The notes below the pieces were generated by a model. The model was not told the DNA's origin and ran no database searches. It saw nothing but the letters and a program-made list of their open reading frames with translations. DNA of 64,000 nt, taken from an uncultured Clostridia bacterium. Lineage in GTDB: Bacteria > Bacillota > Clostridia > Christensenellales > UBA1242. The DNA is taken from NCBI GenBank assembly GCA_944332315.1, contig CALVJT010000021.1, positions 8,896 to 72,895 on the forward strand, in the 5' to 3' direction. Below are positions 3,678 to 44,150 of this stretch, in pieces. A program made the position numbers and the translations under genes. How positions within the stretch are numbered: position 1 is the stretch's first letter; every line of letters begins with the position of its first letter.

Positions 3678-3753
3678 TGGTGGACCATCAGGGACTCGAA
3701 CCCTGGACACACTGATTAAGAGTCAGTTGCTCTACCAACTGAGCTAATGATCC
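3678..3753 (-). tRNA. tRNA-Lys (anticodon CUU)
   Basis: Reverse complement GGATCATTAGCTCAGTTGGTAGAGCAACTGACTCTTAATCAGTGTGTCCAGGGTTCGAGTCCCTGATGGTCCACCA. It has a 7-bp acceptor stem (one G-U), anticodon stem ACTGA/TCAGT, loop CUCUUAA, a GTTCGAGTC T-loop, and an encoded CCA. Confidence 0.92.
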
Positions 3754-3766
3754 AAGCGATAGCCAT

Positions 3767-3795
3767 AGTTTATCACAAACAAATGTTTTTGTCAA
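3767..3795 (-). promoter_or_regulatory. sigma-A-type promoter for tRNA-Lys
   Basis: On the minus strand: TTGACA, 17-nt spacer, TGaTAAACT. The -10 ends about 13 nt before the tRNA 5' end. Confidence 0.5.
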
Positions 3796-3812
3796 CTTAT
3801 TTTGCATTTTTT

Positions 3813-3842
3813 TTGCTTTTATATTAAAATATGTGTTATAAT
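3813..3842 (+). promoter_or_regulatory. sigma-A-type promoter for truA
   Basis: TTGCTT (3813-3818), 18-nt spacer, TGtTATAAT (3834-3842). It overlaps the ATG at 3831 used by the ORF track, which argues for the downstream start. Confidence 0.45.
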
Positions 3843-3860
3843 ATCTCAAATGAGGTATGT

Positions 3861-4592
3861 ATGAGAATAAAAGCCGTTATTGAGTACGATGGTGGGAACT
3901 ATGCTGGTTGGCAGGAACAATTTGGAAAGTCTACTATACAGGGAGAGTTGCAAAGGGCATTACTAGATTTAACTGGACAAAATATAATTTTGCATGCTAG
4001 TGGTCGCACAGATGCTGGAGTGAGTGCAAAAAATCAAGTAGTTCATTTTGATATTGATACAAACTTAAAAATGTATAATTTGATGATGGCGCTCAATATG
4101 CGTTTGCCAGATGATATTAGAATAAAAAAAATGGAGCAGGTAAGTGCAGATTTTCATGCTAGATACAGTGCAAAAAAGAAAATATATACATATCGTATGT
4201 ATGCCTCTTCTATAGAAAGTCCACTTAGGCGCAAAACGCACCTTCAGGTATGGCCAAATTTAGATTTTAATTTAATGCAAGAAGCTTGTAGATATTTTGT
4301 GGGTACGCACGATTTTATTGGTTTTAGCCACCAAAACCCCCAAATAGTATCTACTATTAGAACAATATATTCTTGTGAAATGTTAAAACGGGATGATGAT
4401 ATAATTATTAAAATTTGTGGAAATGGCTTTTTACACAATATGGTAAGAATTATCTGTGGAACCATTCTAAAAGTGGGGCAAAGAAAAATTAAGTTATCTG
4501 ATTTACCTGATATCATAAACAGTAAAGATAGAAAGCGAGCTGGGCAAACTTTGCCCGCCTTTGCATTGACGCTTGAAAACATTGAATATTGA
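3861..4592 (+). CDS. truA: tRNA pseudouridine(38-40) synthase TruA
   Basis: MRIKAVIEYDGGNYAGWQ...ILHASGRTDAGVSA (catalytic Asp motif). The start was moved to ATG 3861, which has TGAGGT upstream. Confidence 0.9.
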   Translation: MRIKAVIEYDGGNYAGWQEQFGKSTIQGELQRALLDLTGQNIILHASGRTDAGVSAKNQVVHFDIDTNLKMYNLMMALNMRLPDDIRIKKMEQVSADFHARYSAKKKIYTYRMYASSIESPLRRKTHLQVWPNLDFNLMQEACRYFVGTHDFIGFSHQNPQIVSTIRTIYSCEMLKRDDDIIIKICGNGFLHNMVRIICGTILKVGQRKIKLSDLPDIINSKDRKRAGQTLPAFALTLENIEY

Positions 4593-11950: not shown

Positions 11951-12754
11951 ATGGAATGGTATATGTTTGTGGTGCTGGGGCTCGAAGTTTTGGCATCATA
12001 CTTTTTTGGCAATATAAGTGTTGCTAGAATAATTTCCAAAATAAAAAAGGGTGATATTACAAAAGTGGGCAGTGGCAACCCAGGGTCGACCAATATGCTG
12101 AGGGCGTATGGAGCAAAACTTGGCTTTTTGACATTGCTACTAGATATTATAAAAGGTGTTTTGCCCGCTTTGATGGGGTACCTAACTTTTATGTTTGTAG
12201 ATGACGGCAACTTTATGCTTGTGGGCTTATATGCCTGTGGGCTAGGTGCCGTTGTGGGACATATGTTTCCTGTGTGTTATAAATTTAAGGGCGGTAAAGG
12301 GGTAGCCACCACACTAGGGGTGTTTGCCGTTGCCGACCCGCTGATAATGTTGTTTGTATTTGTAGGCGCGTTTATATATGTAATATTTTTTGAATATGTG
12401 TCAGTGGCATCACTACTGCTTGTAACAGCAATGGCAATAGTAGAGGTTTATAAAATACCCGAAGGTTTGCCAAGTGGGGTATCACTCACCATTCGAGTGC
12501 TTATATTTGTACTGTTTACACTTGTGTGGTTTGCGCATAGACAAAACATACAACGCCTGCTTGTAGGCAAAGAAAATAAAGCCAACCTTAAAAAAGCCTT
12601 GCGCAAAATGCTAAAACAAGAGAAAAAAGAGCAAAAACAACAAAAGAAAATTGAACATAAAGAATTAAAAGCAATTAAAAAGCAAAAGAAAAAGCTCAAA
12701 AAGCATAGAGCCTCATTGATTGTATCTCATGAATATAAGGGCATAAATCATTAA
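11951..12754 (+). CDS. plsY: glycerol-3-phosphate acyltransferase PlsY with a ~65-aa Lys-rich C-terminal extension
   Basis: GSGNPGSTN and the FKGGKGVAT motifs with multiple TM helices. The tail KENKANLKKALRKMLKQEKKEQKQQKKIEHKELKAIKKQKKKLKKH lies beyond the usual ~200-aa PlsY core. Confidence 0.85.
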   Translation: MEWYMFVVLGLEVLASYFFGNISVARIISKIKKGDITKVGSGNPGSTNMLRAYGAKLGFLTLLLDIIKGVLPALMGYLTFMFVDDGNFMLVGLYACGLGAVVGHMFPVCYKFKGGKGVATTLGVFAVADPLIMLFVFVGAFIYVIFFEYVSVASLLLVTAMAIVEVYKIPEGLPSGVSLTIRVLIFVLFTLVWFAHRQNIQRLLVGKENKANLKKALRKMLKQEKKEQKQQKKIEHKELKAIKKQKKKLKKHRASLIVSHEYKGINH

Positions 12755-12960: not shown

Positions 12961-15900
12961 TTGCCAAATGTAAATGCGGGGTACAATATTAATGAATCGG
13001 GGGATATTAGTACTTATAAAAATCAAAGAGCGGGCAAACTTTTATGCGAGCAATTAAACATAAAAACTAGCAACTCTAAAACACAAGATACGCATACAAA
13101 ATCTTATATTACAAGCGCAAAGCGTATAAAAAGCAATAAAAATAGAAATAGTAATATAGGTGATAGTATGCAAAATAGAATAAATAATAAAGATACCAAA
13201 AATTTAATAAATAATCGAGCAACAAATAAAGCAAGGTATGCAAATATAAAAGTTGCACCGCTGCAAAAATCTGCACTACAAAGAGTAATGTGGCTTTTGG
13301 CATTTATAACTTTGTTCGTATTGGCTCTGCAACCCGTGCTGCAAAATAGGGGCAATATAGCACAGGCAGGTGGACCAACCAGCGGAACAGGTTATACCAA
13401 TGCTCCTGCTACACAGGTAGGCGGTGGTAAAGCGTTGTTTATAGCCAACAATTCAACAGACAGTTCGGAACAAAGCTATAAATCATTAGGAATAAATCCA
13501 AATGTTTTATTTGATTTATTCGAAAAAATAAATGATGAAAGTGTTTGGGGGAATAAAGAAGTATTAAGTAGTGGAGTTACCTATTTAAGCGCTAAAGATT
13601 TTGGACAATATGATCCAAACACAAACAATGCGCAAATAATACTAAAGCTATTAGGTAGCACAAGCACCACTGACAATGATGTAGATGATGCGGCAAACCA
13701 ATACTGGCAAGTTGTATACCGCAGTGTGAGCAAGGATGAGGATGTACTAACACTATATATGACGCAACCATATAAAACTTCGGTTTTTGAAACAAATTAT
13801 TACGAAGGCAATTATAGCGTTAGCAATATAAGAACGGCAATACAAAACACATATTCAAAAATGGCAGAAACATACTCGGTACTAGATGAATATGTAGTAG
13901 CGCCATACCAACTATCCTCAAGTACAGCATCCGAAATACAAAATTCAAAAAATGCAGATTTACAAGGTAAAACAGACTTTTTGAACCTAGGTGGCTGGCA
14001 AAGCAGTGCATACCAAACATCTGCAAACAGCAATGGTGAATATTATAATGGCACAGGATTTAATAGCGGAACAACTACTTATGGAGACCATGCTTTAGGC
14101 TCAAGTGGTTACGGCAGTGATACAAATACAGAATTGGGCACAGTTTATAACTTAGGCAATGGGCTTGATGGTTTAAGCGTGAAGTACAAGGATCGTGGCT
14201 ATGAATGGGAAAGTGAATTTACAAGCGCATACAATGATAAGATGTGGCTACCAAGTGCATTTGAGGTGCTCTACACAGGATACGCGGGGGAATCACATAG
14301 CACATTACCTGGCACAGAAAGGGGATATGATGGAGATACTAATACTGAATCGTATGTAGATGATCCTTCTAGCGCAGGTGCAACACTTAATGTCCGTAGT
14401 CGTTCAGGGCTCTGGGAACTAAATGGTTACGATAGAGCTTGGGGTGATACATCCGTGGTGGGGGACTGGGCGTGGCTGCGTTCCGGCGTTTCCGGTTACA
14501 ATAGTTGCGCGTGCTCTATCGACTGGCGTGGTTCCTACAGCCCTTACGCTGTCAACGGTAATAACGGGTTGCGGGTTGCGCTCCATCTCAACCTTAAGGA
14601 ACTTGCAAACGCCGTGTTTGCAAGTGTATCTGCTGACGCGTCAGCGGGCAGCGTTGGCTCCCCAAGCGTAAGCTTCCCCGATAGGGGATGGGAGCCAACC
14701 ATCGAAAGTAAATATTCCAATTTAATAATAAAAAACTCTTCGGAATCTTCGATTTCTGCAACATATTCTTTTAATACTAATAAAAAAATGACCTCTTTTA
14801 CACTCAATGGAGAGCCAGTTACAGTGAGTGGCAATTCTGGTAGAGGGTCAGTTAGTGGGGTATGCGATTATAGTTATCAAGTGGGTAGCGGAAATGTAGT
14901 AATTACAATCAGCAATGCCTCGCAAAATGTAAATATTGAGGCACAAATTGATGATGCGGGTTATGCATTGACATTTGATTATGAAACAAATGGTGGAACT
15001 AGCACAACTGCTACAAACGGCATATATGTACAAGGGGCAACCGTTGACCTATCAAATATGCAAGCCGACAAAGGTAATGGCTGGGAATTTGAGGGCTGGA
15101 GTGAAAACCCAAATGCACACAGTGGCAGCATAACAACTTTTCAAATGCCGGGGCAGGCAACCACATTGTATGCAATATTTTCAAAAACCTTAACCGCAAG
15201 TTTTTATCAAATAAACACATCTAGTGCAGAGACTAGGGATGTGACAATTTATAATACAGCTACAAATGGCAATATCATTGATATTCCAGTGGTAAACACA
15301 TCGCTATCCATAGCGGGTGCAACTAATATAACAGCAGTTGGATGGGTAAAAGATGATTCACTCGAAGATACAACTGGTGGTATTACGATAAGTGAGGATG
15401 TAGCGTACTATGCGCGGGTTAATTACACTATAACTATCACATACAACGGCAATGGTGGCAGTGTAAGTCAAGCAAGCAGTACGGGCACAGTTACTATGAC
15501 TGCAAATGGACAAGCAACTGGAGCCACTCCAACAAATGCGCAGATACCTCTTGCAAACAACACAACACCACGACCAAACTACACATTTGTTGGTTGGAAC
15601 TCAAATAGCGGAGGAACAGGCACATCATACACTGCAGGGGAAAGCTACAGCTTTAGTGCAAGTACAACGCTTTATGCTGTGTGGGATAAAACCACAACTA
15701 CAGCTCAACTGACAATAACGCTAGCAACACCGAGCGAGGCTGGAGTTATAATTTATCTTGTGCAAGACAACAAGGTGGCAAAGCAGTTTGTAGTGATGGG
15801 GGAAACAAAAACTATAAGTGTAGAACTAACCAAGGGAGCGGAATACAAAATAATAGTATCTAAGCCATATACATGGCAAGTAGAGTACACAGGTAATGGC

Positions 15901-16014
15901 AGTGTACAAAACGATAACTATGTATTCACGGCATCAAGCGCAGATGTTAGCGAGACTCAGTACACAATTACTGTAAGCGGTGGCAGTATACCAAACAATT
16001 GGTGGATAGTATAA
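12961..16014 (+). CDS. large membrane-anchored surface protein with Listeria-Bacteroides (Flg_new-type) repeats; the true 5' end is uncertain (ATG 12870 via frameshift at the G tract, or internal ATG 13168)
   Basis: One TM/signal-anchor helix (VMWLLAFITLFVLALQPVL). There is a WLRS...GLRVALHLNL lectin-like module. Repeats such as YTLTFDYETNGGT...GWEFEGWSENPN...TLYAIF and ITYNGNGGS...YTFVGWNSNSGGTG...TLYAVW are present. The track start is a TTG without an SD. The frame is open back to 12895. Confidence 0.8.
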   Translation: MPNVNAGYNINESGDISTYKNQRAGKLLCEQLNIKTSNSKTQDTHTKSYITSAKRIKSNKNRNSNIGDSMQNRINNKDTKNLINNRATNKARYANIKVAPLQKSALQRVMWLLAFITLFVLALQPVLQNRGNIAQAGGPTSGTGYTNAPATQVGGGKALFIANNSTDSSEQSYKSLGINPNVLFDLFEKINDESVWGNKEVLSSGVTYLSAKDFGQYDPNTNNAQIILKLLGSTSTTDNDVDDAANQYWQVVYRSVSKDEDVLTLYMTQPYKTSVFETNYYEGNYSVSNIRTAIQNTYSKMAETYSVLDEYVVAPYQLSSSTASEIQNSKNADLQGKTDFLNLGGWQSSAYQTSANSNGEYYNGTGFNSGTTTYGDHALGSSGYGSDTNTELGTVYNLGNGLDGLSVKYKDRGYEWESEFTSAYNDKMWLPSAFEVLYTGYAGESHSTLPGTERGYDGDTNTESYVDDPSSAGATLNVRSRSGLWELNGYDRAWGDTSVVGDWAWLRSGVSGYNSCACSIDWRGSYSPYAVNGNNGLRVALHLNLKELANAVFASVSADASAGSVGSPSVSFPDRGWEPTIESKYSNLIIKNSSESSISATYSFNTNKKMTSFTLNGEPVTVSGNSGRGSVSGVCDYSYQVGSGNVVITISNASQNVNIEAQIDDAGYALTFDYETNGGTSTTATNGIYVQGATVDLSNMQADKGNGWEFEGWSENPNAHSGSITTFQMPGQATTLYAIFSKTLTASFYQINTSSAETRDVTIYNTATNGNIIDIPVVNTSLSIAGATNITAVGWVKDDSLEDTTGGITISEDVAYYARVNYTITITYNGNGGSVSQASSTGTVTMTANGQATGATPTNAQIPLANNTTPRPNYTFVGWNSNSGGTGTSYTAGESYSFSASTTLYAVWDKTTTTAQLTITLATPSEAGVIIYLVQDNKVAKQFVVMGETKTISVELTKGAEYKIIVSKPYTWQVEYTGNGSVQNDNYVFTASSADVSETQYTITVSGGSIPNNWWIV

Positions 16015-16233
16015 ATCTACAAAAGGTTGTATTATAAAATAGCATTAATAAATAAGTTAAATACATTTTTCAAGTGTAGGGGTTAGCATTTGAGAACATA
16101 AAACTTGTTCATAATGTAAATCAAAGGGGAAGGGGAACTATATTTTATAGCAGAGAGATTTATAAAATGAGATTTTAGTCTACGATATGATTCCTCTTAT
16201 AAAAATTATTAGTATTAAATGAAAAAAGAGTTT

Positions 16234-16268
16234 AAGACTACAAAGGGTGTATCCTTTGTAGTCTTTTT
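16234..16268 (+). terminator. rho-independent terminator, 220 nt after the surface-protein stop
   Basis: 13-bp stem AAGACTACAAAGG / CCTTTGTAGTCTT, loop GTGTAT, then TTTTT. Confidence 0.8.
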
Positions 16269-16278
16269 ATATATTCTT

Positions 16279-16378
16279 GTTCTTAATTTTAGTGGTGGAA
16301 TAGTATGTTATTAATTTAGATTTTTGCTAAACTCTTTATTCTAAATATTTAACTAACCCTATTGAATATAATAGAACC
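16279..16378 (+). repeat. intergenic repeat family R1, copy 2
   Basis: GTTCTTAATTTTAGTGGTGG...TTTTTGCTAAACTCTTTATTCTAAATATTTAACTAACCCTATTGAATATAATAGAAC. Confidence 0.65.
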
Positions 16379-16440
16379 TATAATATTCTTTATAATATGG
16401 GCTTAATAAGTTAGACATTAAATAGTTAAATTATTTTATG

Positions 16441-16518
16441 CAAAATGTTGGGTTATTGGCATAAATAATAGTTAAAGCTTAACTAAATTGCACTAACGGC
16501 CTAACTTGATTATAGAGT
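16441..16518 (+). repeat. intergenic repeat family R2, copy 2
   Basis: CAAAATGTTGGGTTATTGGCATAAATAATAG...CTTGATTATAGAGT. It has the same end blocks as 3444-3508 with a longer middle. Confidence 0.55.
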
Positions 16519-16666
16519 TTTTGGTTATCTATAAAATTTAGGTGTGTAGTAGGTACATAAAAGCAATTATAGTTATTATAAGCATTTAATTATCTTACAT
16601 CTTTATAGTGGTAATATTAATTTTATATCCTCATTAAAACAATTATAATCTATTTTTGTGTTTTAA

Positions 16667-16695
16667 TCATAAAGCCAAAAAGGCGTGAATATAAT
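16667..16695 (+). promoter_or_regulatory. candidate mother-cell (sigma-E-like) promoter of spoIVA
   Basis: TCATAAA, 14 nt, AATATAAT. The same 7-14-8 arrangement (TCATAAC-N14-AATATAAT) precedes spoIIIAA at 39798-39826. Confidence 0.4.
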
Positions 16696-16718
16696 GTTAT
16701 AAATCTAGGAGGAGTTTA

Positions 16719-18188
16719 ATGGAAAACAGCATTTACCAAGATATAGCACAGCGCACTAATGGCGATATTTATTTAGGCGTTGTGGGGCCTGTTAGGGTAG
16801 GAAAATCTACCTTTATAACAAATTTTATGGAAAAGTTAGTTATTCCCAACATACAAGATAGCAATGTTAAAATTAGGGCGGTGGACGAACTGCCTCAATC
16901 TGCCGATGGCAAGACTATAATGACTACGCAACCCAAGTTTGTGCCTAGCGAGGCGGTTAGCATAAACATTGATAACATTGCTATGAATGTGCGCCTTATA
17001 GACTGCGTGGGCTACTTTGTTGCTGGTGCTTTGGGGAGCAGTGAGGGAGAAAAACCTAGGCTTGTAAAGACGCCGTGGAGTGATGAGGATATGCCTTTAG
17101 AGCGCGCTGCCGAAATAGGGACTGAAAAGGTTATAAAAGAGCACTCCACTGTAGGCATTGTTATGACTGCCGATGGCAGTTTTGGCGAACTACCTAGGGA
17201 TGCTTTTATCGAGGGGGAGGAGCGCGTTATTAATGAGCTAAAGGAAATTAATAAGCCATTTGTTGTGATACTAAATAGTGCGTATCCAAAATCGCCCGAT
17301 ACAATAGAGCTTGCGGATAATTTAACGCAAAAGTACGGGGTAAAGGTTATGGCTGTGGATGTATCTAATTTAAGCGAGGATAACATCAACGAGATGTTTG
17401 CCAACCTTTTGCGCGAATTTCCTATTGTTGCAATTGAGGTGGCTATGCCAAAGTGGATGCAGGCACTGCCATTTGAGCATCCGCTTATTGAAAGAGTTGT
17501 AGATGAATTTAGGCAACACGCCGAAAATCTTTATAAAATAGGCGACCTTAATAAAGGGCAATTATTTATAGAATCGGCTGATTTTGAACCTATAAATGCC
17601 TCGCTTGTAAAACTGGGCGAGGGCAAAATTGAGTTTGAAATTAAAACAAAACCTCAACTTTTCTATAAAGTTTTAAGCCAAGAGTGCGATATGAACATAG
17701 AGGATGACTACCATCTAATGAGCCAAATAAAAGACCTTGCTTTTGCTAAAAAAGAATACGATAAACTTAAAGATGCTTTGCAATCTGTGGAGGAAACGGG
17801 CTACGGTGTTGTTAACCCTAAACTTACTGATATGGTATTAGATGAGCCTGTTGTTGTAAAGCAAGGCAACCGATATGGGGTAAAACTGCACGCAAGTGCA
17901 CCTAGTTTGCATTTAATGAAGGTGGATATCGAAACCGATTTATCTCCTTTAGTAGGCACCGAGGACCAAACAAACGATTTTGTAAAGTACTTGCAAAGCG
18001 AGTTTGAAAACAACCCGCAATCTTTGTGGGATACCAATGTGTTTGGGCGCTCTTTAAGTGACCTTATCGAGGATGGTATGAAATCTAAACTAAATGGTAT
18101 GCCTGTTGATGCTCAACGCAAAATGCGCCGTACGCTAACAAAAATTGTAAACGAGGGCAAGGGTGGCATTATTTGCATATTGCTATAA
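16719..18188 (+). CDS. spoIVA: stage IV sporulation protein A (spore-coat basement-layer ATPase)
   Basis: 489 aa. N-terminus YQDIAQRTNGDIYLGVVGPVRVGKSTFI (Walker A) and C-terminus ...NEGKGGIICILL are highly characteristic of SpoIVA. Confidence 0.92.
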   Translation: MENSIYQDIAQRTNGDIYLGVVGPVRVGKSTFITNFMEKLVIPNIQDSNVKIRAVDELPQSADGKTIMTTQPKFVPSEAVSINIDNIAMNVRLIDCVGYFVAGALGSSEGEKPRLVKTPWSDEDMPLERAAEIGTEKVIKEHSTVGIVMTADGSFGELPRDAFIEGEERVINELKEINKPFVVILNSAYPKSPDTIELADNLTQKYGVKVMAVDVSNLSEDNINEMFANLLREFPIVAIEVAMPKWMQALPFEHPLIERVVDEFRQHAENLYKIGDLNKGQLFIESADFEPINASLVKLGEGKIEFEIKTKPQLFYKVLSQECDMNIEDDYHLMSQIKDLAFAKKEYDKLKDALQSVEETGYGVVNPKLTDMVLDEPVVVKQGNRYGVKLHASAPSLHLMKVDIETDLSPLVGTEDQTNDFVKYLQSEFENNPQSLWDTNVFGRSLSDLIEDGMKSKLNGMPVDAQRKMRRTLTKIVNEGKGGIICILL

Positions 18189-18214
18189 ATAATAAAAGCA
18201 ATAGTCTACATTTT

Positions 18215-18243
18215 AAGGTCTAAAATATTCTAGACCTTTTTTT
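18215..18243 (+). terminator. rho-independent terminator after spoIVA
   Basis: Stem AAGGTCTA / TAGACCTT, 8-nt loop, T-run TTTTTTT. Confidence 0.75.
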
Positions 18244-18329
18244 ATTTTGTTATAGCTTTTTATCTTTAAGGCTAAAAAAAGTATTATTTGTGTATCAATA
18301 CAAAAAATATATATCCTGCTTTTGTTTAA

Positions 18330-18358
18330 TTGTAATATATTTTTTAGTGTGCTATAAT
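18330..18358 (+). promoter_or_regulatory. sigma-A-type promoter for tkt
   Basis: TTGTAA (18330-18335), 17-nt spacer, TGcTATAAT (18350-18358). Confidence 0.5.
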
Positions 18359-18375
18359 TTTATAAGGAGATTATT

Positions 18376-20352
18376 ATGACTGATAGAGAAATTGCCATAA
18401 ATGAACTGCGCGTGCTGGGCTCTATGGAAATTAGCAATGCAAAATCTGGGCACACGGGCATAGTGCTTAGCAGTGCACCAATTTTGTTTGCACTTTTTAA
18501 TGACCATTTAATGTTTAACCCTAAGGATACCTCTTGGCTTATGCGTGATAGGTTTATTATGAGTGCGGGACACGGCAGTGCTTTGCTTTATGCAATTTTG
18601 CATATGTTTGGCTACGATTATTCGATTAATGACTTAAAGAGTTTTAGGCAACTACACAGCAAGTGTGCGGGGCATCCCGATTATGGTGCATCGGGTGTAG
18701 AGGTTACAACGGGGCCATTGGGGCAGGGCATTGCTAATGCGGTGGGCATTGCGCTTTGCGAGAAAAAACTTAATGAGCTATCCAAAGAAAAAACCGATGG
18801 TTTTTTTAGCCATTATACCTATGTTTTGGTGGGTGAGGGAGATATTTCGGAGGGGATATCCTACGAGGCTTGCTCGCTTGCGGGGCTTTGGAAGTTAAGC
18901 AAACTTATTGTTTTGCTAGATAGCAACAATATGACTATAGAGGGCAAGGCGGAGCTTGCGCTGGGGGATGATTTGGTAAAGCGCTTTGAGGCGCAGGGCT
19001 TTTTTGTGCAAACTGTTGATGACGGCAACGATAGTGTAGCTATATCGCAAGCAATTAGTCAAGCAAAGGCGCAGGATGAAAAGCCTAGTCTTATAATTTG
19101 CAAAACAAAGCTTGGTTATGGTTGCGAGTTTGAGGATAACCCTAAAATACATGGCAGTGCTTTGGACGAAAAAGGGCTAGATTATTTGCGCGAAAAACTT
19201 GGTGTTGATATGCGAGATTGGAAGTTTAGCAAAAGCACAAAGGCACTAATAAATCAAAGTCTAAAAAGCAAAAAAGCATACTACACCCAAAGTGTGGCTA
19301 AATTAAAAAAGTTTTTGCAGGACGATTTCTTTAAGCCTTTAGATGTGCAGGGGATAACCGAACAACTCTTAAATCAAAATTGGTTTTATGATGTTGCTAC
19401 GCGCGAGAGCAGTGGAAAGGTGCTAAATTTTATTAAAGATAAAATACCTAATTTAATTGGTGGCAGTGCGGACCTTGCGCCATCTACAAAGGCGGTTTTT
19501 GCAGATGAGCCTTTCTTTTCGGCGCAAGATGTTTTGGGCAGGAACATCCACTTTGGCATACGCGAACACGCGATGGGCGCCATTTGCAACGGCATACAAG
19601 TTTATGGCGCATTTAGAAGTTTTTGTTCTACATTTTTTGTGTTTTATGATTATCTTAAGCCTAGCCTAAGGATGTCTGCTATTATGGGGCTAAATGTTTT
19701 ATATATTTTAACGCACGATAGCATTATGGTGGGTGAGGATGGCATAACGCATCAGCCAATAGAGCAGTTGGCAAATATTCGCTCTGTTCCAAACTTGCTG
19801 GCATTTCGTCCTTGCGATACGCGTGAAACTGTGGCGGGCTATATACTGTATCTACAAAATAATAATAAACCTACTGCACTAATACTATCTAGGCAAGAAC
19901 TAAAAATGCAAAATTCTGATATCGAGAAGGCTTTGCTTGGTGGGTATGTAATAGAAAATAGTCCGCTTGATAAATGTGATATCACTTTAATAGGTAGTGG
20001 TAGCGAGGTTGCCACTTGTGTTGCGGTGCGCGATGCTTTGTTCAAAAAAGGTTACACGACACGCATTGTTTCAATGCCGTCCGAGGGCATATTTAGTATG
20101 CAACCTAAAAAATATCAAAGGCAAGTTTTAGGAGATGGCTTGCGAGTGTTTATAGAATTATCTAACGATGATATCTATCAAAAATACTTGCGTGAATATG
20201 ATGCGGTGTTTAATTTATCTGGTTTTGGCGAAAGTGGAAAAGCGGGGGATGTTTTGGATGACCTTGAGATGTCTGCTTCAAAACTTTTGCCTAAAATAGA
20301 AAAGGTTATAAAAACTTATAAAAAATATAATCGAACTCTTTTAGATAATTAG
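18376..20352 (+). CDS. tkt: transketolase
   Basis: 658 aa. It has SGHTG, FIMSAGHGSALLYAILH and GPLGQGIANAVG (TPP-binding motifs) and an HDSIxxGEDGxTHQPIE block. Confidence 0.9.
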   Translation: MTDREIAINELRVLGSMEISNAKSGHTGIVLSSAPILFALFNDHLMFNPKDTSWLMRDRFIMSAGHGSALLYAILHMFGYDYSINDLKSFRQLHSKCAGHPDYGASGVEVTTGPLGQGIANAVGIALCEKKLNELSKEKTDGFFSHYTYVLVGEGDISEGISYEACSLAGLWKLSKLIVLLDSNNMTIEGKAELALGDDLVKRFEAQGFFVQTVDDGNDSVAISQAISQAKAQDEKPSLIICKTKLGYGCEFEDNPKIHGSALDEKGLDYLREKLGVDMRDWKFSKSTKALINQSLKSKKAYYTQSVAKLKKFLQDDFFKPLDVQGITEQLLNQNWFYDVATRESSGKVLNFIKDKIPNLIGGSADLAPSTKAVFADEPFFSAQDVLGRNIHFGIREHAMGAICNGIQVYGAFRSFCSTFFVFYDYLKPSLRMSAIMGLNVLYILTHDSIMVGEDGITHQPIEQLANIRSVPNLLAFRPCDTRETVAGYILYLQNNNKPTALILSRQELKMQNSDIEKALLGGYVIENSPLDKCDITLIGSGSEVATCVAVRDALFKKGYTTRIVSMPSEGIFSMQPKKYQRQVLGDGLRVFIELSNDDIYQKYLREYDAVFNLSGFGESGKAGDVLDDLEMSASKLLPKIEKVIKTYKKYNRTLLDN

Positions 20353-22869: not shown

Positions 22870-23173
22870 TATAGCAAGTGTTTTACAGTATTGATGCCTA
22901 GCATTTAGCAAGCAACGCAAATTGCGTAGGGTATATAGCATTTATTTAATAAAACATAAATAGCGGTTTTAGGATTAAATTTTATAAACTTATAATGTGT
23001 CAACACTGATATGCTTATATCAAAAAAGAATGTTTTTTAATTATCAATCAATAAATTTTACATTTTATTAGCTAATTTTATAAAGCGAATGCAATCAAAT
23101 TATTTTTAGAAATTTCAAATAGTCTAAATAAATTCAATTTTTGTTATCACTATTTATACTTTAGGAGAGAATT

Positions 23174-26100
23174 GTGTCATTTGATAATGATGATATGGAT
23201 GAGGAGGAGTTCACAAATCAGCCTATAGAAGGGCAAATGTCGATTTTTGAACTGCCTCAACAACCTGAACCTAATGAGGAAGAGGTTTTTACAAATCAGC
23301 CGGTGCAGGGGCAACTTGATTTGTTTGAATATTATGATGCTGTTAATTCACGCAGTGGTAAAGTAGAAAATTTGTATAAAAATGCAAATAGTGATGATGA
23401 TATTTTAGATACAAATTTACAATATGTAAAAGTAGAAAATATTTATAGCGATGAAAATGTAGATAATAAAGTAGTAGATAATAAAAAAATAAATGATAAA
23501 CAAAAAAGCAATCAAAATATAAAAAGTATTGAGGAAAATAAACATAGTGCTGTTGATAAAAATAAAATCTCAGATTATGAGCAGGTGGATGAGCGAGTAT
23601 CTGCTGATGATTATCACGAAAATATTGTTGAGAACGAGTGTGATATAAATGGGGCAGATACAGAATATGTGGATGCGGACAATGAACCTATCAAAACACA
23701 TTTATCAAATTCGAATAACTTGAGTGATGAATCTATTCAATTTGATGTAGTGGAAAACAATCAAGATACTGTTGTGGGTGCGCCAGATTATGAGCAATCT
23801 GAAACGCAAACGCAAACTTACAAAAATGAATTGAAAGATAATACAGAATTCAATTATCAAAGTGATGAACACGATAGAAAAATTATTTACGAAAATAGTG
23901 GTAAACTAATAAGACAACCAAAGAAATATCAAAGAGAGGGTAGAAAAATGGCTAATACTGATGAGCCTATTAAAAGCAATGTCAAGGGGGGTGGCGGGAA
24001 CAATGAAGGTGGACTTCTTGTACAATCTATTGATGAAGTTTTGCACAATTCAATGATTCCTTATAGTGAATTTGTATTGCTAGATCGTGCTTTGCCAAGG
24101 GTAGAGGATGGGCTAAAGCCTGTTCAGAGGCGTATACTTTACACTATGCTAGAGTTGGGCATGACGCCGGATAAGGCGTATCGAAAGTGCGCTAGAATTG
24201 TCGGCGATTGTTTAGGTAAATATCATCCTCATGGCGATACTTCTGTTTATGATGCGCTTGTGCGTATGGCTCAACCTTTTAATATGCGCGGGATATTAGT
24301 GCAAGGGCACGGCAATTTTGGTTCTGTTGATGGTGATAGTGCGGCGGCTATGAGGTATACCGAGGCAAAACTTGCACCGCTTGCAATGGAATTGTTGAGA
24401 GATTTAGAAAAAGAAACCGTTAAATGGAGCTTTAATTTTGATGATACGCTAAAGGAGCCTGATACATTACCGGGGCGTTTTCCTAACTTGCTTGTAAATG
24501 GTGCGGTGGGTATAGCTGTTGGTCTTGCCACCAACATACCAACTCATAACCTAAACGAAGTTATTGATGGCGTTGTTGCTTTGATTGAACATCCTTCCAT
24601 TCAGCTAAAGGAAATGATGAAAATAATTAAAGGCCCAGACTTTCCTACTGGTGCGATAATTTCTACTGATGAACTTTATCAAGCATATGAAACGGGTCGT
24701 GGTAAAATTACTATGAGGGCAAAGACGCATTTTGAGGATGCGGGAAATGGCAAAACAAACATAGTTATTACCGAAATACCATATCAAAAGAATAAATCAA
24801 GTTTACTTGCTAAAATTGCCGATGTTCGAGAGGATAAAAAGGGCGTATTGCTTGGCATACAGGATATTAAAGATGAATCTGATAGGAATGGGATTAGGGC
24901 AGTTATAACCGTTAAAGCGGGGTACAATGCTAATGACATTCTCAATTTACTATATAAATACACCGATTTACAATCTAGTTTTGGTATAAATATGGTAGCT
25001 ATAGCCGATGGTAAGCCAAAACAACTTGGGTTAATGACAATACTAAAGTACTATCTAGATTATCAAGTTGATATTATTGTGCGCAGAACGCGTTTTGACC
25101 TTAATAATGCTAAAGAGCGTATGCACATTTTAGAGGGGCTACACATTGCAATTGTAAATATCGATGAGGTTGTTGCAATTATAAAGAATAGTTCTAACAC
25201 TACCGAGGCTAAAGTGCGTTTAAGGCAAAGGTTTTTACTATCCGAAAAGCAGGCTCAAGCAATTTTGGATATGCGCCTTGCGCGTTTGACAAGTTTGGAA
25301 GTTTATAAAATCGAACAGGAAATTGCAGAACTTAAGGTGCTTATAGAAAAACTGACTGCAATTCTTAATTCAAAGCGCTTGCAACTTGATGTTATAAAAA
25401 ATGAACTACTTGATATTAAGAGAAAATACTCTATGCCTCGATTAACTAAAATTGTAAAGAGTTTTGGCGAAATTGATGTTGAGAGCATTTTGGAAGCTAA
25501 CAAAGTGGTTGAGGAAACTATTGTTGCTTTAACGCAAAGTGGCACAATCAAAAGGATGCAACCTAAACACTTTGAGACGACTGTAAAAGAGTTTAATTCG
25601 CAACTCACCGAAAACGAGTTGCACTACAATATACTTAAGACATCTACAGATAAAACTTTGGTTGCGTTTACAAACAAGGGCAACGCGTGCAGAATATCTG
25701 TTGAGGATATTAAAGAAGTTAAGTGGAGAGATAAGGGGACAAACTTTAGGGCTATTTGCAAAGAGTTGGATGTGGATGAAAAGATTTTATCTTTGTTTGA
25801 AATAAATAAAAATGATGATAGAGAAATTATTTTTGGCACCAAGCACGGGCTACTAAAACGAACTGCCCTAAAGGAATATGATGTATCAAAACAAAAATTT
25901 ACTGCAATTAAGTTAAAAGAGGATGATGAGCTTGTTAGTGCAGTATTGGCAGATAATAAAAAGACTATACTTATGGTAACAAAACACGGTATGGCGCTTA
26001 ATTGCGAGATTGGTGCAGTGCCAACAAGTGGTCGTGTCAGTCAAGGTGTAAAGGGTATGAACCTATCTAGCGACGATTGCTTTGTGTTTGTGGGGCTTAT

Positions 26101-26416
26101 GCCTCTTAACGCCGAGTTGGTACTAGCAACGAAAAAAGGCTTTGCAAAGAGGTTTAATGTGGGGGGCATTGAACTTTCGCAAAGGGCAAGAAAGGGTTCA
26201 AAGGTTTTTGCCATAAATGAGAATGATGAGATAATTTTTGTAGATATTGAAAAGGGCGATGCTGATTATGTAGTAAAATTCTATGGGAACGATAATTTTG
26301 TAAAAAAGAATATCAAGGAATTTTTCCCTGATAAAAAACAGGGTAAGGGCAAGAGTTTATCTACAAATAAAAATGGGTTAAGAATAACTTCCATTTATAA
26401 ATACAATATAGAATAA
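23174..26416 (+). CDS. parC: type IIA topoisomerase DNA-cleavage subunit, ParC-type (no GyrA box), with a 258-aa acidic N-terminal extension
   Basis: GTG start with AGGAG 6 nt upstream. The canonical domain starts near aa 280 (DRALPRVEDGLKPVQRRILY, AAMRYTE catalytic Tyr region). Where GyrA has QRRGGKG, the CTD first blade reads HFETTVKEFNSQL. An alternative internal start is ATG 23948. Confidence 0.8.
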   Translation: MSFDNDDMDEEEFTNQPIEGQMSIFELPQQPEPNEEEVFTNQPVQGQLDLFEYYDAVNSRSGKVENLYKNANSDDDILDTNLQYVKVENIYSDENVDNKVVDNKKINDKQKSNQNIKSIEENKHSAVDKNKISDYEQVDERVSADDYHENIVENECDINGADTEYVDADNEPIKTHLSNSNNLSDESIQFDVVENNQDTVVGAPDYEQSETQTQTYKNELKDNTEFNYQSDEHDRKIIYENSGKLIRQPKKYQREGRKMANTDEPIKSNVKGGGGNNEGGLLVQSIDEVLHNSMIPYSEFVLLDRALPRVEDGLKPVQRRILYTMLELGMTPDKAYRKCARIVGDCLGKYHPHGDTSVYDALVRMAQPFNMRGILVQGHGNFGSVDGDSAAAMRYTEAKLAPLAMELLRDLEKETVKWSFNFDDTLKEPDTLPGRFPNLLVNGAVGIAVGLATNIPTHNLNEVIDGVVALIEHPSIQLKEMMKIIKGPDFPTGAIISTDELYQAYETGRGKITMRAKTHFEDAGNGKTNIVITEIPYQKNKSSLLAKIADVREDKKGVLLGIQDIKDESDRNGIRAVITVKAGYNANDILNLLYKYTDLQSSFGINMVAIADGKPKQLGLMTILKYYLDYQVDIIVRRTRFDLNNAKERMHILEGLHIAIVNIDEVVAIIKNSSNTTEAKVRLRQRFLLSEKQAQAILDMRLARLTSLEVYKIEQEIAELKVLIEKLTAILNSKRLQLDVIKNELLDIKRKYSMPRLTKIVKSFGEIDVESILEANKVVEETIVALTQSGTIKRMQPKHFETTVKEFNSQLTENELHYNILKTSTDKTLVAFTNKGNACRISVEDIKEVKWRDKGTNFRAICKELDVDEKILSLFEINKNDDREIIFGTKHGLLKRTALKEYDVSKQKFTAIKLKEDDELVSAVLADNKKTILMVTKHGMALNCEIGAVPTSGRVSQGVKGMNLSSDDCFVFVGLMPLNAELVLATKKGFAKRFNVGGIELSQRARKGSKVFAINENDEIIFVDIEKGDADYVVKFYGNDNFVKKNIKEFFPDKKQGKGKSLSTNKNGLRITSIYKYNIE

Positions 26417-39797: not shown

Positions 39798-39826
39798 TCA
39801 TAACTTATAGGCTTGTCTAATATAAT
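39798..39826 (+). promoter_or_regulatory. candidate mother-cell (sigma-E-like) promoter of the spoIIIA operon
   Basis: TCATAAC, 14 nt, AATATAAT. This is the same arrangement as upstream of spoIVA. It overlaps the upstream TTG/ATG candidates, which favours ATG 39846 as the start. Confidence 0.4.
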
Positions 39827-39845
39827 GATTAAAAAGGGGCTTTTT

Positions 39846-40751
39846 ATGTTAGATGGATATTTACCTAGTCAAATTATTAATGCATTAAAGCATTTAAGTA
39901 TTAATAAATTAAATGAAATTAGGTTAAGGGTTGGAAATCCTGTTGTCATAGACTATGGTGGACTGTACTATTTATCTAGTGTAGGTATTACAGATGTTAT
40001 TGGAAAATCTATAATTTGTACAAAAGATATGATTGAATATACTGTGGCACAGGCATGCGAAAACTCTATTTATGCTTATAATGATGATATAAAACAAGGC
40101 TATTTAACAATTCCTGGAGGGGCGAGAATTGGCCTTGCAGGCACTTGTGTTAGAGAAGGACCGACTATCAAAACCATTAAAAACATATCCTCATTGAACA
40201 TAAGAATTCCACACGAAGTTAAAAATTGTAGCCTAAAGATATTAGAGTTTGTTACGGAGCCATCTATCCACAACACTTTAATACTTTCGCCTCCTGGGGC
40301 AGGTAAAACTACTTTGTTGAGAGATTTGGCTTTTCAAATTTCGCAAAGGTATTTGCAAAATATTCTTATTATAGATGAAAGGAATGAAATAGCTAATACG
40401 ATTAATGGCATCCCCCAATACAAACTTGGAATTTTTTGCGATGTTATGACTAACTGTACAAAAAAATTTGGCTTAGAAAATGGTATTAGGAGTATGCGTC
40501 CAGATGTTGTAATGACAGATGAGATTGCAAATGCAAGTGATGTACAAGCTATACACTATGCACTAGGTTGTGGTGTGAAGGCTATTGCTACAACCCATTG
40601 CGATAGTTTGATTGCTTTAAAAGATAAAAAAGATTTTGAACAACTTATAGAAAAGAAAACTTTTGAAAGATACATATTGCTATCTACAAAAAATGGCGCT
40701 GGTACTATTGAAGGAGTTTTTGACAAAAATTTTAAGTGTCTATGTATGTAA
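39846..40751 (+). CDS. spoIIIAA: stage III sporulation protein AA (ATPase)
   Basis: LNEIRLRVGNPVVI, Walker A at LSPPGAGKTTLLRDLA, IDERNEI. It is the first gene of a spoIIIA-type cluster. Confidence 0.85.
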   Translation: MLDGYLPSQIINALKHLSINKLNEIRLRVGNPVVIDYGGLYYLSSVGITDVIGKSIICTKDMIEYTVAQACENSIYAYNDDIKQGYLTIPGGARIGLAGTCVREGPTIKTIKNISSLNIRIPHEVKNCSLKILEFVTEPSIHNTLILSPPGAGKTTLLRDLAFQISQRYLQNILIIDERNEIANTINGIPQYKLGIFCDVMTNCTKKFGLENGIRSMRPDVVMTDEIANASDVQAIHYALGCGVKAIATTHCDSLIALKDKKDFEQLIEKKTFERYILLSTKNGAGTIEGVFDKNFKCLCM

Positions 40752-41222
40752 ATGATTACAATATTAATTGCATTGTTGGTTGTGGGGTGTTCCTCATATC
40801 TAGGTTGGGGCATAGGAAATTACTACAAAAAGCGCGTTAAATTTTTTAGGGATGTAAAAGATATGTTGAATTATTTGATAAACAACATAAATTTTTACAA
40901 AGATAGCGTCAATTACAATTTAGAAAAATTTATTAATCAATATAAGCCTAACACTACATTAATTGAAATAGTAAATGATTATAAAGATAAAAAAATTAAA
41001 AGTTATGCTTTGTTAAAAAATGATGAATTTCATTTAGTGAACAACATTTTTGAACATTTAGGAAAAAGTGATAGCGAAAATCAAATAATGGGCCTAAAAA
41101 ACTTTTCTTTTCAAGTTGATGAATTAATAAATAAATGCGATGAAGATTATAACAAAATAGGAAAAATTTCCAATAAATTAGGCACTTTATTAGGCATCAC
41201 TTTAGCAGTATTTTTTATATGA
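40752..41222 (+). CDS. spoIIIAB: stage III sporulation protein AB
   Basis: 156 aa with an N-terminal TM helix. Called from size and its position between AA and AC. Start ATG abuts the AA stop codon (TAA then ATG). Confidence 0.65.
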   Translation: MITILIALLVVGCSSYLGWGIGNYYKKRVKFFRDVKDMLNYLINNINFYKDSVNYNLEKFINQYKPNTTLIEIVNDYKDKKIKSYALLKNDEFHLVNNIFEHLGKSDSENQIMGLKNFSFQVDELINKCDEDYNKIGKISNKLGTLLGITLAVFFI

Positions 41223-41229
41223 GGTATTT

Positions 41230-41424
41230 ATGGGAATAGAAATAATTTTTAAGATAGCAGCTATTGGAATTTTAACTGCTATAGTAAATCAGGTTTTGAA
41301 ATATGCTGGTAAAGATGAAATTGCAACACTTGCTACTTTAGCCGGAGTTATTATAGTTTTGTTAATGTTAATAAATATGATTGGGGAACTATTTGAAAGT
41401 GTAAAAGTTTTGTTTCAGTTGTAG
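41230..41424 (+). CDS. spoIIIAC: stage III sporulation protein AC
   Basis: 64 aa with two TM helices. IFKIAAIGILTAIVNQVLKYAGKDEIATLATLAGVIIVLLML matches the conserved AC pattern. Confidence 0.8.
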   Translation: MGIEIIFKIAAIGILTAIVNQVLKYAGKDEIATLATLAGVIIVLLMLINMIGELFESVKVLFQL

Positions 41425-41430
41425 GCGAAT

Positions 41431-41814
41431 ATGGAAATATTAAAAATTATTGCTATAGGAATTATAACCACAATTGCAGTGCTTATAGTAAAGCAAACTA
41501 AACCTGAAATAGCTGTTCTTTTAGGACTTGCTGGCTCTATTTTAATTTTTTTTGAACTAGTAGATATGCTAAACAATGTTTTTGTAGTTTTTAATAATAT
41601 TGTAGAACAAACAGGTGTATCTAACGAACTATTTGGAATTTTATTAAAAATTATAGGAGTAGGGTATTTGACGGAATTTAGTGCAAGCCTTTGTGCAGAT
41701 AGTGGCAATTCGTCTATAGCAGATAAAATAATGTTGGGTGGAAAGGTAGTTATACTTGTTTTAGCTTTGCCTATTTTTACATCTATTTTGAACATAATAT
41801 TAGGTTTATTATGA
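41431..41814 (+). CDS. spoIIIAD: stage III sporulation protein AD
   Basis: 127 aa. KIIGVGYLTEFSASLCADSGNSSIADKIMLGGKVVILVLALPI matches the conserved AD pattern. Confidence 0.8.
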   Translation: MEILKIIAIGIITTIAVLIVKQTKPEIAVLLGLAGSILIFFELVDMLNNVFVVFNNIVEQTGVSNELFGILLKIIGVGYLTEFSASLCADSGNSSIADKIMLGGKVVILVLALPIFTSILNIILGLL

Positions 41815-43064
41815 AAAATAATGTTTATCAAAAAAAACTTTATAAACGCAAGTACCAAATAAATAAAAAAGATGTTGTTATTTGTCTACTAGCTTTAATA
41901 ATTTTAGTTTTATCTAATTTTATGTTAGCTACTACATTAAGCACCGATACATCTACCGATCTAAATGAAATAGAACAAGAGCTAACTGAAACTGTAGATG
42001 AACAATTAAGTGGAATAGACTTAAGCGAATTTCAAAATTTATTAGAAGGTTTAAGTGAGCAAGAAATATCATTATTTGGCGCATCAAGTTTTTATGATAA
42101 AGTATCACAACTTCTGACAAGCGATTTATCAACTGACCAATCACTATTTTCACAATTATTAGCGATTTTATTGGATGAGTTATTAAATTTTATCCCTTTA
42201 TTGGCCACCATTTGTGCAATAGCAATTCTTTCGAGTTTTATTTCTAATTTAAGAGTAAAATCCAATGACCATTCCATAGCGGATATTGTACATTTTGTAT
42301 GCTTTGGTGTTATTATTGTAATAATTTCGGGTGCTGTGCTATCATTAGTGGGGATGACTAGAAACTTACTATCATCAATTCAAGCGCAAATGCAAATAAT
42401 ATTTCCTATTTTATTAACGCTTTTAACAAGTTTAGGGGGCATAGTTTCTGTAAGTGTTTTTCAGCCGATGGTAGCAGTGCTAATATCGGGAGTTATGCAG
42501 ATATTTAATTATGTAGTTTTTCCTCTATTTATATGTGCATTTATATTTACTGTAGTGGGGAATTTGAGCAATAGTATAAAATTAGATAAATTTATTTCTT
42601 TTTTCAAAAGCGCATTCAAGTGGGTTACTGGTTCAGTAATGACGCTATTTTTTACTTTCATTACAATACAAGGCATTACTGCAGGAAGTTTTGATGGTAT
42701 TTCGGTGCAAACAGCAAAATATGCTATAAAAAGTTATGTGCCTATAGTTGGGGGATATTTATCAGATGGATTCAATTTGATAATGTCAAGTTCAATTTTA
42801 ATAAAAAATGCCCTTGGTGTAGCTGGGTTATTGTTACTTTTTGCAACTATTGTTGTTCCAGTAATTAAAATTGTAATATTTAGTTTAGGGTTAAAATTAA
42901 CTGCAGCTGTAATTGAACCACTTACCGATTCTAGGACAAGTAATTTTATTTTTACTATTTCTAAAAATATGGGTTTTTTAGTTGCAACAATTCTAAGCAT
43001 TGCATTTATGTATTTAATTTCAATTGGTTTGATTATTATATCCGGTAATGCTTTCTATACATAA
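41811..43064 (+). CDS. spoIIIAE: stage III sporulation protein AE
   Basis: 417 aa polytopic membrane protein with an N-terminal signal/anchor. Translationally coupled to AD, with the expected size and position. Confidence 0.75.
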   Translation: MKNNVYQKKLYKRKYQINKKDVVICLLALIILVLSNFMLATTLSTDTSTDLNEIEQELTETVDEQLSGIDLSEFQNLLEGLSEQEISLFGASSFYDKVSQLLTSDLSTDQSLFSQLLAILLDELLNFIPLLATICAIAILSSFISNLRVKSNDHSIADIVHFVCFGVIIVIISGAVLSLVGMTRNLLSSIQAQMQIIFPILLTLLTSLGGIVSVSVFQPMVAVLISGVMQIFNYVVFPLFICAFIFTVVGNLSNSIKLDKFISFFKSAFKWVTGSVMTLFFTFITIQGITAGSFDGISVQTAKYAIKSYVPIVGGYLSDGFNLIMSSSILIKNALGVAGLLLLFATIVVPVIKIVIFSLGLKLTAAVIEPLTDSRTSNFIFTISKNMGFLVATILSIAFMYLISIGLIIISGNAFYT

Positions 43065-44074: not shown

Positions 44075-44150
44075 TGGTACTCCCAACGGGGGTCGAACCC
44101 GTGTTACCAGCGTGAGAGGCTAGCGTCCTAGGCCACTAGACGATGGGAGC
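44075..44150 (-). tRNA. tRNA-Glu (anticodon CUC)
   Basis: Reverse complement GCTCCCATCGTCTAGTGGCCTAGGACGCTAGCCTCTCACGCTGGTAACACGGGTTCGACCCCCGTTGGGAGTACCA. It has a Glu-type D-arm (TCGTCTAGTGGCCTAGGAC), anticodon loop CUCUCAC, a GGTTCGA T-loop, and an encoded CCA. Confidence 0.88.

Follow-up and report, generated by a model that had tools for sequence, protein, structure and literature searches.

An N-terminally extended ParC of uncultured gut Clostridia, with twin motifs resembling the sliding-clamp-binding pentapeptide

The gene considered here encodes a ParC-type subunit of topoisomerase IV (topo IV) and lies in a 64,000-nucleotide stretch of DNA from an uncultured Clostridia bacterium of the Christensenellales (GenBank assembly GCA_944332315.1, contig CALVJT010000021.1, positions 8,896 to 72,895 of the forward strand); the whole of this stretch is called the window, and nucleotide positions are counted within it. 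A full GyrB/ParE-type subunit gene lies directly 5' of it. Unlike canonical ParC, which starts about 30-45 residues before the sequence DRALP, the product has 258 further residues in front, made up of a short conserved module with two motifs close to the pentapeptide by which bacterial proteins bind the beta sliding clamp, DnaN, and of an acidic linker that is predicted to be disordered (Table 1). A preliminary description had suggested that this tail might tether the enzyme to the clamp.

Table 1. Features of the extended parC gene, its product and the adjoining region of the window
Feature	Position	Strand	Remarks
plsY (glycerol-3-phosphate acyltransferase)	11951..12754	+	Pfam G3P_acyltransf 3.4e-46; context only
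parE-type ATPase subunit, 655 aa	20902..22869	+	Pfam HATPase_c, DNA_gyraseB, Toprim, DNA_gyraseB_C
parE-parC spacer, 304 nt	22870..23173		AT-rich (22% GC); about 42-69 nt in the closest relatives (L001, L002, L005)
Shine-Dalgarno sequence AGGAG	23163..23167	+	6 nt before the GTG start; counterparts in related loci
Full ParC reading frame, 1080 aa plus stop	23174..26416	+	GTG start; stop codon 26414-26416
Conserved N-terminal module, putatively for docking, aa 1-57	23174..23344	+	acidic lead-in, motif 1, 21-residue spacer, motif 2
Motif 1, PIEGQMSIFEL, aa 17-27	23222..23254	+	core QMSIF at 23234-23248 (aa 21-25)
Motif 2, PVQGQLDLFEYY, aa 43-54	23300..23335	+	core QLDLF at 23312-23326 (aa 47-51)
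Acidic Asn/Asp/Glu-rich linker, predicted disordered, aa 58-258	23345..23947	+	from AlphaFold2, charge-hydropathy and composition
Internal Shine-Dalgarno-like GAGAGGG and ATG (M259)	23934..23950	+	GAGAGGG 23934-23940, ATG 23948, 7 nt spacing
Type IIA topoisomerase A-subunit breakage-reunion core, aa 305-745	24086..25408	+	Pfam DNA_topoisoIV 2.1e-159
C-terminal beta-pinwheel domain, ParC-type	25511..26398	+	Pfam DNA_gyraseA_C, 4 stretches

The extended reading frame and its assignment to ParC

The upstream start is indicated by several features. An in-frame TAG lies at 23162, three codons upstream of the GTG; the extension, with a base composition of 42% A and 26% T, would remain free of stops over 258 codons at that composition with a chance probability of only about 1.3e-11, and the remaining five frames over the same stretch hold 8-54 stops. 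In related extended loci, AGGAG or GGAG followed by a spacer and GTG or ATG likewise stands before the far-upstream start. Judged from these sequence features, together with the conservation of the motifs in relatives, the 258-codon extension is genuine coding sequence, and translation most probably begins at GTG 23174, as the preliminary description had held; the coordinates it gave for the reading frame, start, Shine-Dalgarno sequence, repeats, pentapeptides, internal ATG and GyrA-box position all proved exact on re-checking.

Downstream of the extension, the conserved N-terminal domain of the ParC core reads DRALPRVEDGLKPVQRRILY (aa 304-323). The core matches many GyrA and ParC chains in the PDB, with E-values down to 1e-165, and holds the catalytic Tyr395 within AAAMRYTE (24341-24364), of which R394, Y395 and T396 are invariant in 73 homologues. 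The best solved relative of the C-terminal domain (CTD) is 1WP5, a 323-aa chain deposited as 'topoisomerase IV' (7e-31, versus 6e-24 for GyrA CTDs). This domain has no GyrA box (Q[RK]RGG[RK]G): the corresponding position reads HFETTVKEFNSQL (aa 799-811; 25568-25606), and in the HMMER alignments the residues QKRGGKG that form the box in Mycobacterium tuberculosis GyrA stand opposite a 4-residue gap of the query, which there reads TTVKEFNSQL. Among NCBIfam models, the Gram-positive parC equivalog (parC_Gpos, TIGR01061) scores 742 bits, below its cut-off of 813, and the gyrA equivalogs are likewise missed (858 versus 902 and 842 versus 877 bits); the sole A-subunit model passed is the subfamily NF004044, 'DNA topoisomerase (ATP-hydrolyzing)', at 770 versus 654 bits. 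Because this divergent lineage misses the equivalog cut-offs, the protein is assigned to ParC by its CTD, by the lack of a GyrA box and by its gene context. Regarding the last, the adjacent ParE passes the NCBIfam subfamily NF004189 (883 bits versus a cut-off of 740), parE stands immediately 5' of parC in nearly all related loci, and dnaA and dnaN are not among the neighbouring genes, so that the locus is not the dnaA-dnaN-recF-gyrB-gyrA origin cluster.

By these comparisons the product is a divergent ParC-type topo IV A subunit rather than a GyrA, which bears out the original assignment. Its likeness to Gram-positive ParC/GrlA (1WP5; 2NOV, 'DNA topoisomerase 4 subunit A' / ParC55) extends to the breakage-reunion core with its catalytic Tyr, to a beta-pinwheel CTD without a GyrA box, and to a gene directly 3' of parE in a plsY neighbourhood; it differs from these proteins in its low score against the parC_Gpos model, as well as in its extension. 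In the AlphaFold2 (AF2) model of the monomer, the predicted local distance difference test (pLDDT) falls below 50 in several stretches of aa 294-453 (24053-24532), the N-terminal part of the otherwise well-conserved core; the ParC dimer, ParE and DNA are missing from this model, which may account for the low confidence.

The twin-motif module and its acidic linker

Within the module, QLDLF is an exact match to the clamp-binding consensus QL[SD]LF, and QMSIF is a near match that fits Qxx[LI]F; read as QLDLFEYY, motif 2 also fits the pattern Qxx[L]xx[FY][FY] of the PCNA-interacting peptide (PIP) box. The two cores lie in a pair of repeats, EEFTNQPIEGQMSIFE (aa 11-26, nt 23204-23251) and EEVFTNQPVQGQLDLFE (aa 36-52, nt 23279-23329), which agree at 38 bases in an alignment of 53 columns that contains one 3-nt indel and two smaller gaps; because of these indels, a gapless repeat finder missed the pair. 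Of the tandem duplication that had been proposed here, the similarity at both protein and DNA level is upheld, but not a recent origin, because the twin arrangement is old, being common to clades with cores only about 50-55% identical. The likeness of the repeats in DNA therefore reflects constraint at the protein level.

Such constraint is visible in the relatives. Residues P17, G20, Q21, G46 and Q47 are invariant among 16 loci from three clades, and L27 is kept in at least 90% of them. In clade A, which comprises the window and loci L001-L005, QMSIFE is identical in all proteins. Close relatives keep the motifs, QMSIF in every case and, in the second position, QLDLF or, in the next sub-clade, QYS[MLI]F. 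Among the six clade-A loci, while the cores are 83% identical, the module (aa 1-60) is 54-60% identical and linker residues 61-220 are only 6-16% identical, that is, unalignable. Both motifs sit at most 54 residues from the N-terminus in a region that AF2 leaves at low confidence, the pLDDT being 37-64 over the module and 58-64 for aa 41-60, motif 2 included, with a helix at aa 50-60.

Acidity of the linker is maintained despite this free drift of its sequence. In the window, the extension contains 12% N, 12% E and 11.6% D and has a net charge of -35, and the mean net charge of the extensions of 78 homologues is -0.18 per residue. A charge-hydropathy measure places the extension in the disordered class, and AF2, run on a 73-sequence alignment, gives a pLDDT of 24-34 and no secondary structure over aa 60-282; by these predictions, the linker is intrinsically disordered. 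A conserved twin-motif module followed by an unalignable, disordered linker is the signature of short linear motifs carried on a disordered leash. The linker of the window also contains a short internal repeat, KVENLY / KVENIY (aa 63-68 and 86-91; 23360-23377 and 23429-23446), for which relatives have no alignable counterpart.

The distribution of the module was followed in two sets of sequences. A scan of one genome per species gave 80 loci (81 counting the window), all 80 of them from metagenome-assembled genomes (MAGs) of uncultured Clostridia or Christensenellales-like gut bacteria. Extensions of at least about 100 aa occur in 19 of the 81 loci, 17 of these being 144-421 aa long, and the motif is present in all 19; in the remaining loci DRALP is preceded by 29-100 codons, mostly 30-60, and the motif is missing. 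A whole-protein search, which found an NCBI record (P0030) identical to the 1080-aa product of the window and many relatives of 860-1227 aa, supplied the second set, namely the 118 best homologues that could be scored, with an extension defined as at least 40 extra residues; 78 of them, again all from uncultured gut Clostridia or Christensenellales-like MAGs, are extended by 56-402 aa comprising module and linker. The longest extension, of about 535 aa, belongs to a protein retrieved by profile search (P0169). The pattern G-Q-Φ-x-Φ (Φ, hydrophobic) is found in 75 of the 78 extended homologues and occurs 128 times in all, versus 1.6 expected by shuffling and a maximum of 7 in 1000 shuffles, an approximately 80-fold excess. 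As for the three without it, one retains the motif but has K where the Gly preceding the Gln would stand, one has a degenerate form, and the third, P0053, is uninformative, starting just 39 nt from the end of its contig. Between twin motifs, the distance from Gln to Gln is 24-29 residues across the 78 homologues, with a mode of 27. All extensions longer than about 120 aa carry the motif, nearly all of them in two copies, and those of about 56-100 aa mostly carry one; in P0136 the second copy is divergent and has no Gly. Retention of extension and motifs by relatives, which the preliminary description had named as a check, is thus answered in the affirmative. An approximate neighbour-joining tree built from the cores mixes clades that bear the extension with others that do not, an arrangement that fits several losses or several gains.

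Profiles of the module were also searched against 5.8 billion clustered proteins and 1.84 billion representatives, and the interpretable matches were ParC N-termini or contig-end fragments, the latter continuing into the ParC core where long enough; since these searches return ParC N-termini, the module is specific to ParC. Two further matches, P0170 (7629 aa, with eight short matched stretches) and P0182 (an RTX-repeat protein), were read as low-complexity noise. No Pfam or NCBIfam model matches aa 1-258, and when these residues alone were compared with the 5.8 billion proteins a single fragment was returned, whereas the full-length query later gave dozens of extended homologues; the word-index candidate step of the protein search seems to miss low-complexity queries. 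No replacement clamp motif was found at the C-terminus of extension-less relatives (40 proteins). A split tail hidden in the long parE-parC gap of two relatives with a short ParC (L024 and L048) was considered and dismissed, unrelated genes being inserted there instead. The insert of L024 (about 2940-4000) is a predicted membrane protein gene, and the product of that in L048 (about 3200-4040) is methyltransferase-like on reading of its translation.

The internal ATG at M259, presumed to be the ancestral ParC start, is possibly a secondary start today. All six clade-A loci keep an ATG located 43-47 codons ahead of DRALP, and 8-13 nt before this ATG comes a purine-rich Shine-Dalgarno-like run; the protein sequence around it is only about 30% conserved in that clade, and some other clades have no Met at the position. 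Two loci, L081 and L082, on contigs from two different metagenome samples, ERZ24773234 and ERZ28615593, have independently lost 16 nt and 28 nt compared with L002, which in both cases shifts the frame. The deletions fall shortly before the internal Shine-Dalgarno-like run and ATG, at 1440-1503 of each locus, corresponding to about 23900-23950 in the window. The gene is split there into a tail frame of 215-219 aa with both motifs and a core frame of 823 aa (P0050); in the same species-level group, at least 14 distinct sequences have the gene intact. Programmed -1 frameshifting on the run of A residues that precedes the internal ATG was rejected for the split variants, as the tail frame meets its stop codon ahead of this A AAA AAG run. 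If the two loci are free of assembly errors, the internal start would be competent and a covalent tail not strictly essential, and a tail-less isoform in wild-type cells is plausible. Of the initial opposition between the two starts, therefore, the preference for GTG 23174 is retained, but M259 is not irrelevant, being needed by the two frameshift variants.

The sliding clamp and other candidate partners

In the interpretation favoured for the window clade, the ParC N-terminus is extended by a putative docking module of about 57 residues, bearing two short linear motifs, and an acidic, disordered leash of about 200 residues. As the ParC N-terminus adjoins the TOPRIM/DNA-gate region of ParE, the leash should project from the body of the ParC2ParE2 enzyme, and it would present two motifs per ParC and four per enzyme, with its negative charge holding it extended and off the DNA. 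The motifs would then dock on a dimeric partner, most likely by insertion into the hydrophobic clefts of the DnaN clamp, for which the chances are rated slightly below even. These clefts lie about 50 Å apart on the same face of the clamp; the 21-residue spacer, with a motif spacing of about 27 residues, could plausibly bridge them, allowing one tail to fill both clefts of a single clamp, and this would explain why the motif spacing is constant. Each protomer of the homodimeric clamp contributes one cleft (PMC12309361). So tethered, topo IV would concentrate on clamps left behind the fork on new DNA, where precatenanes arise. Given that topo IV resolves precatenanes behind the fork (PMC11253446, PMC5061553), a clamp tether would place the enzyme where its substrate forms.

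This interpretation draws on the likeness to known clamp-binding proteins. E. coli MutS carries the motif QMSLL, comparable to QMSIF, and the clamp motif of Hda is N-terminal, as are the motifs of the window. The consensus QL[SD]LF, or more generally QxxLF (PMC12309361, PMC6511837), is matched identically or closely by the pentapeptides of the window, as it is in Pol III alpha, PolC, Pol II, Pol IV/V, MutS, MutL and Hda (QL[SD]LF or QLxLxL), and the placement of the motifs in a flexible terminal region is likewise typical of clamp-binding motifs (PMC6511837). Agreement with the consensus extends beyond clade A: the window clade has QMSIFEL with QLDLF.YY (or QYS[MLI]F), the sister clade has QMDIF or QMNIF with QIDLF or QIDFF, and both clades keep Q-[LMIY]-[SDN]-[LIMF]-F in the two copies. 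A third clade has QM[RC]YDELL with Q[LIM]D[ILFM]W, and other clades have Q[LIV]G[LI]E[DE]LYY with Q[MIV]S[LF][DE]DL, or a single QVG[FL][DE][DE][FL]. Q1 and the hydrophobic position 4 are invariant or nearly so in all clades, and the only universal family pattern is P-[IVL]-[DE]-G-Q-Φ-x-Φ-x-x-Φ, the Q-Φ-x-Φ-x-x-Φ part of which has the spacing of a PIP box.

Several observations nonetheless weigh against the clamp. Position 5, which is F throughout the window clade and its sister, is occupied elsewhere by W, D, E or G; roughly half of the lineages with an extension have D, E or G there, and G is frequent at position 3, as in QLGLEDLYY, QISLDDL and QVGFDDF. Nor are clamp motifs known to have a P-[IVL]-[DE]-G flank in front of the Gln. 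Clamp-bound peptides are extended, in contrast to the helix that AF2 places through the second half of motif 2. Moreover, the core of L081 and L082 can start at the internal ATG only, and since these two natural deletions uncouple the tail, it would not be strictly required, unless the variants are defective or assembly errors. In E. coli, altering position 1, 4 or 5 of the clamp motif reduces or eliminates binding, and a Gly at position 3 also reduces it (PMC12309361). Known clamp-binding proteins also differ from the present case in that here the carrier is a type IIA topoisomerase, that two copies stand at fixed spacing, that the Gln is preceded by the P-[IVL]-[DE]-G flank, and that sister clades have W, D or E at position 5. 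Likeness to the eukaryotic and archaeal PIP box (QxxLxxFF; PMC6511837) is seen in the fit of QLDLFEYY, in the spacing of the family pattern and in the AF2 helix beginning inside motif 2; bacteria, however, have no PCNA, and most family members lack both aromatic residues. The clamp tether accordingly would suit the motifs of the window clade best, and the variants of the sister clades weaken it. Extended to the whole order-level group of gut Clostridia, the proposal that topo IV is hitched to DNA-loaded clamps by bivalent motifs, with a tail-less isoform forming an untethered pool, is rated as somewhat less likely than not.

The same anatomy might instead serve another dimeric or multimeric chromosome partner, namely SMC-ScpAB, a SpoIIIE/FtsK translocase, ParB/Spo0J or SSB, which is rated as rather unlikely. 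In its favour, the family-wide pattern is longer than the clamp pentapeptide and unlike it, with an acidic position 5 in many lineages; the source bacterium forms spores, as the SpoIVA and SpoIIIA genes of the window show, and therefore has chromosome-translocation machinery; and topo IV of E. coli offers a precedent in its recruitment by MukBEF and SeqA (PMC5061553, PMC11253446). Both copies in the window clade nevertheless fit the clamp consensus, and F or W is retained at position 5 in three sub-clades. Moreover, we know of no motif of SMC-ScpAB, SpoIIIE/FtsK, ParB/Spo0J or SSB that resembles the sequence. An intramolecular role appears improbable: the tail would be a DNA-mimicking polyanion that folds onto the basic ParC CTD or the DNA gate, with the motifs anchoring on ParC or ParE, and would tune DNA binding or substrate choice like the acidic tail of E. 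coli GyrA. The charge, -35 here and -0.18 per residue on average in the 78 homologues, is kept while sequence and length drift, which suggests selection on charge, and the persistence of the core gene after a frameshift has removed the tail is what would be expected of a modulator. A pure polyanion, on the other hand, would not call for invariant G-Q motifs that are evenly spaced from one protein to the next at its distal tip, AF2 finds no confident structure in the module of the monomer, and lengths from 56 to about 535 aa sit poorly with a defined intramolecular reach.

The remaining alternatives concern the nature of the enzyme and of the extension itself. Were the protein a second DNA gyrase, its tail would serve supercoiling ahead of the fork. 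In NCBIfam, the gyrA models outscore the Gram-positive parC model (858 and 842 versus 742 bits) and among PDB chains those of GyrA match the core best, but neither gyrA nor parC equivalog cut-offs are reached, the CTD is nearer to 1WP5 and is devoid of the GyrA box needed for wrapping and supercoiling, the locus is not that of gyrB-gyrA, and an NCBI record calls one extension-bearing homologue 'DNA topoisomerase 4 subunit A'; a gyrase is accordingly very improbable. Hardly credible at all is a non-functional extension, in which translation would start from M259 only and the upstream frame would be low-complexity drift or an annotation artefact. This would accommodate the conserved internal ATG and its Shine-Dalgarno-like run in clade A, the obligatory use of that ATG in the two frameshift variants and the database entry of the 823-aa short form (P0050), but it is opposed by the chance probability of about 1e-11 for the open frame, by a frame open over 56-535 codons in dozens of lineages, by the conserved Shine-Dalgarno sequence and start codon at the upstream site, and by motifs conserved at the protein level with fixed spacing and an 80-fold excess over shuffles.

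Comparison with known means of positioning topo IV clarifies what a clamp tether would add. Firmicutes, to our knowledge, have neither MukBEF nor SeqA. In E. coli, contacts between the MukB hinge and the ParC CTD, as well as with SeqA and FtsK, localise the decatenase through protein-protein interaction with ParC (PMC5061553, PMC11253446), as is proposed here; those contacts use folded surfaces of the ParC CTD, whereas the candidate contact in the window would be a linear motif on an N-terminal disordered leash. The reviews consulted name contacts of the MukBEF, SeqA and FtsK type, and these in E. coli only. A further parallel is the acidic, disordered appendage on the A subunit of another bacterial type IIA topoisomerase, the C-terminal tail of E. 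coli GyrA; this tail, however, is at the opposite end of the protein, is about 35 aa long, has no conserved tip motif and acts on DNA wrapping by the GyrA CTD. According to Tretter and Berger (in 2012), it is reportedly autoregulatory.

Searches of the open-access literature and bioRxiv returned no paper that describes a clamp motif in topo IV or gyrase, or contact of either enzyme with the clamp, and no counterpart of the architecture came from these sources or from Pfam and NCBIfam, in agreement with the preliminary description, which knew of none. A ParC with a clamp-type linear motif on an N-terminal leash is hence without published precedent in the literature searched, and its binding to DnaN is a prediction from sequence. 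Delivery of decatenase to precatenanes behind the fork is understood for E. coli only (MukBEF, SeqA). Were the clamp interpretation correct, clamps left on new DNA would serve as landing pads, a simple and general answer for one lineage; a type II topoisomerase would join the list of clamp clients and provide a natural bivalent clamp ligand; and decatenation would be coupled structurally and directly to the wake of the replisome, in a manner not known from any type II topoisomerase. Even with another partner, the family offers a clear natural example of a short linear motif that is conserved while the acidic leash bearing it, on an essential enzyme and drug target, drifts freely.

Gene neighbourhood and minor features of the window

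The neighbours of parE-parC in the window are lepA, a radical-SAM gene, der, plsY, a gene for a large surface protein, spoIVA and a transketolase gene. In Bacillus, Staphylococcus and Streptococcus, plsY adjoins parE-parC, and we take plsY-parE-parC to be the usual Firmicute order; here, unlike in that order, three genes (12961-20352) separate plsY from parE, namely those for a 1017-aa protein with Listeria-Bacteroides repeats and DUF6273 (the large surface protein), SpoIVA and transketolase. The parE-parC spacer has no Rfam family match and no terminator-like site, and its promoter-like matches are at shuffle level; a small palindrome, ACGCAA-A-TTGCGT, is found within it near 22915-22927. The presence of spoIVA (16719-18188) and of spoIIIAA/AE (within 39813-43064) marks the source organism as an endospore-former. 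The sole Rfam matches in the window are two tRNA genes, at 3681-3753 and 44078-44150 (minus strand).

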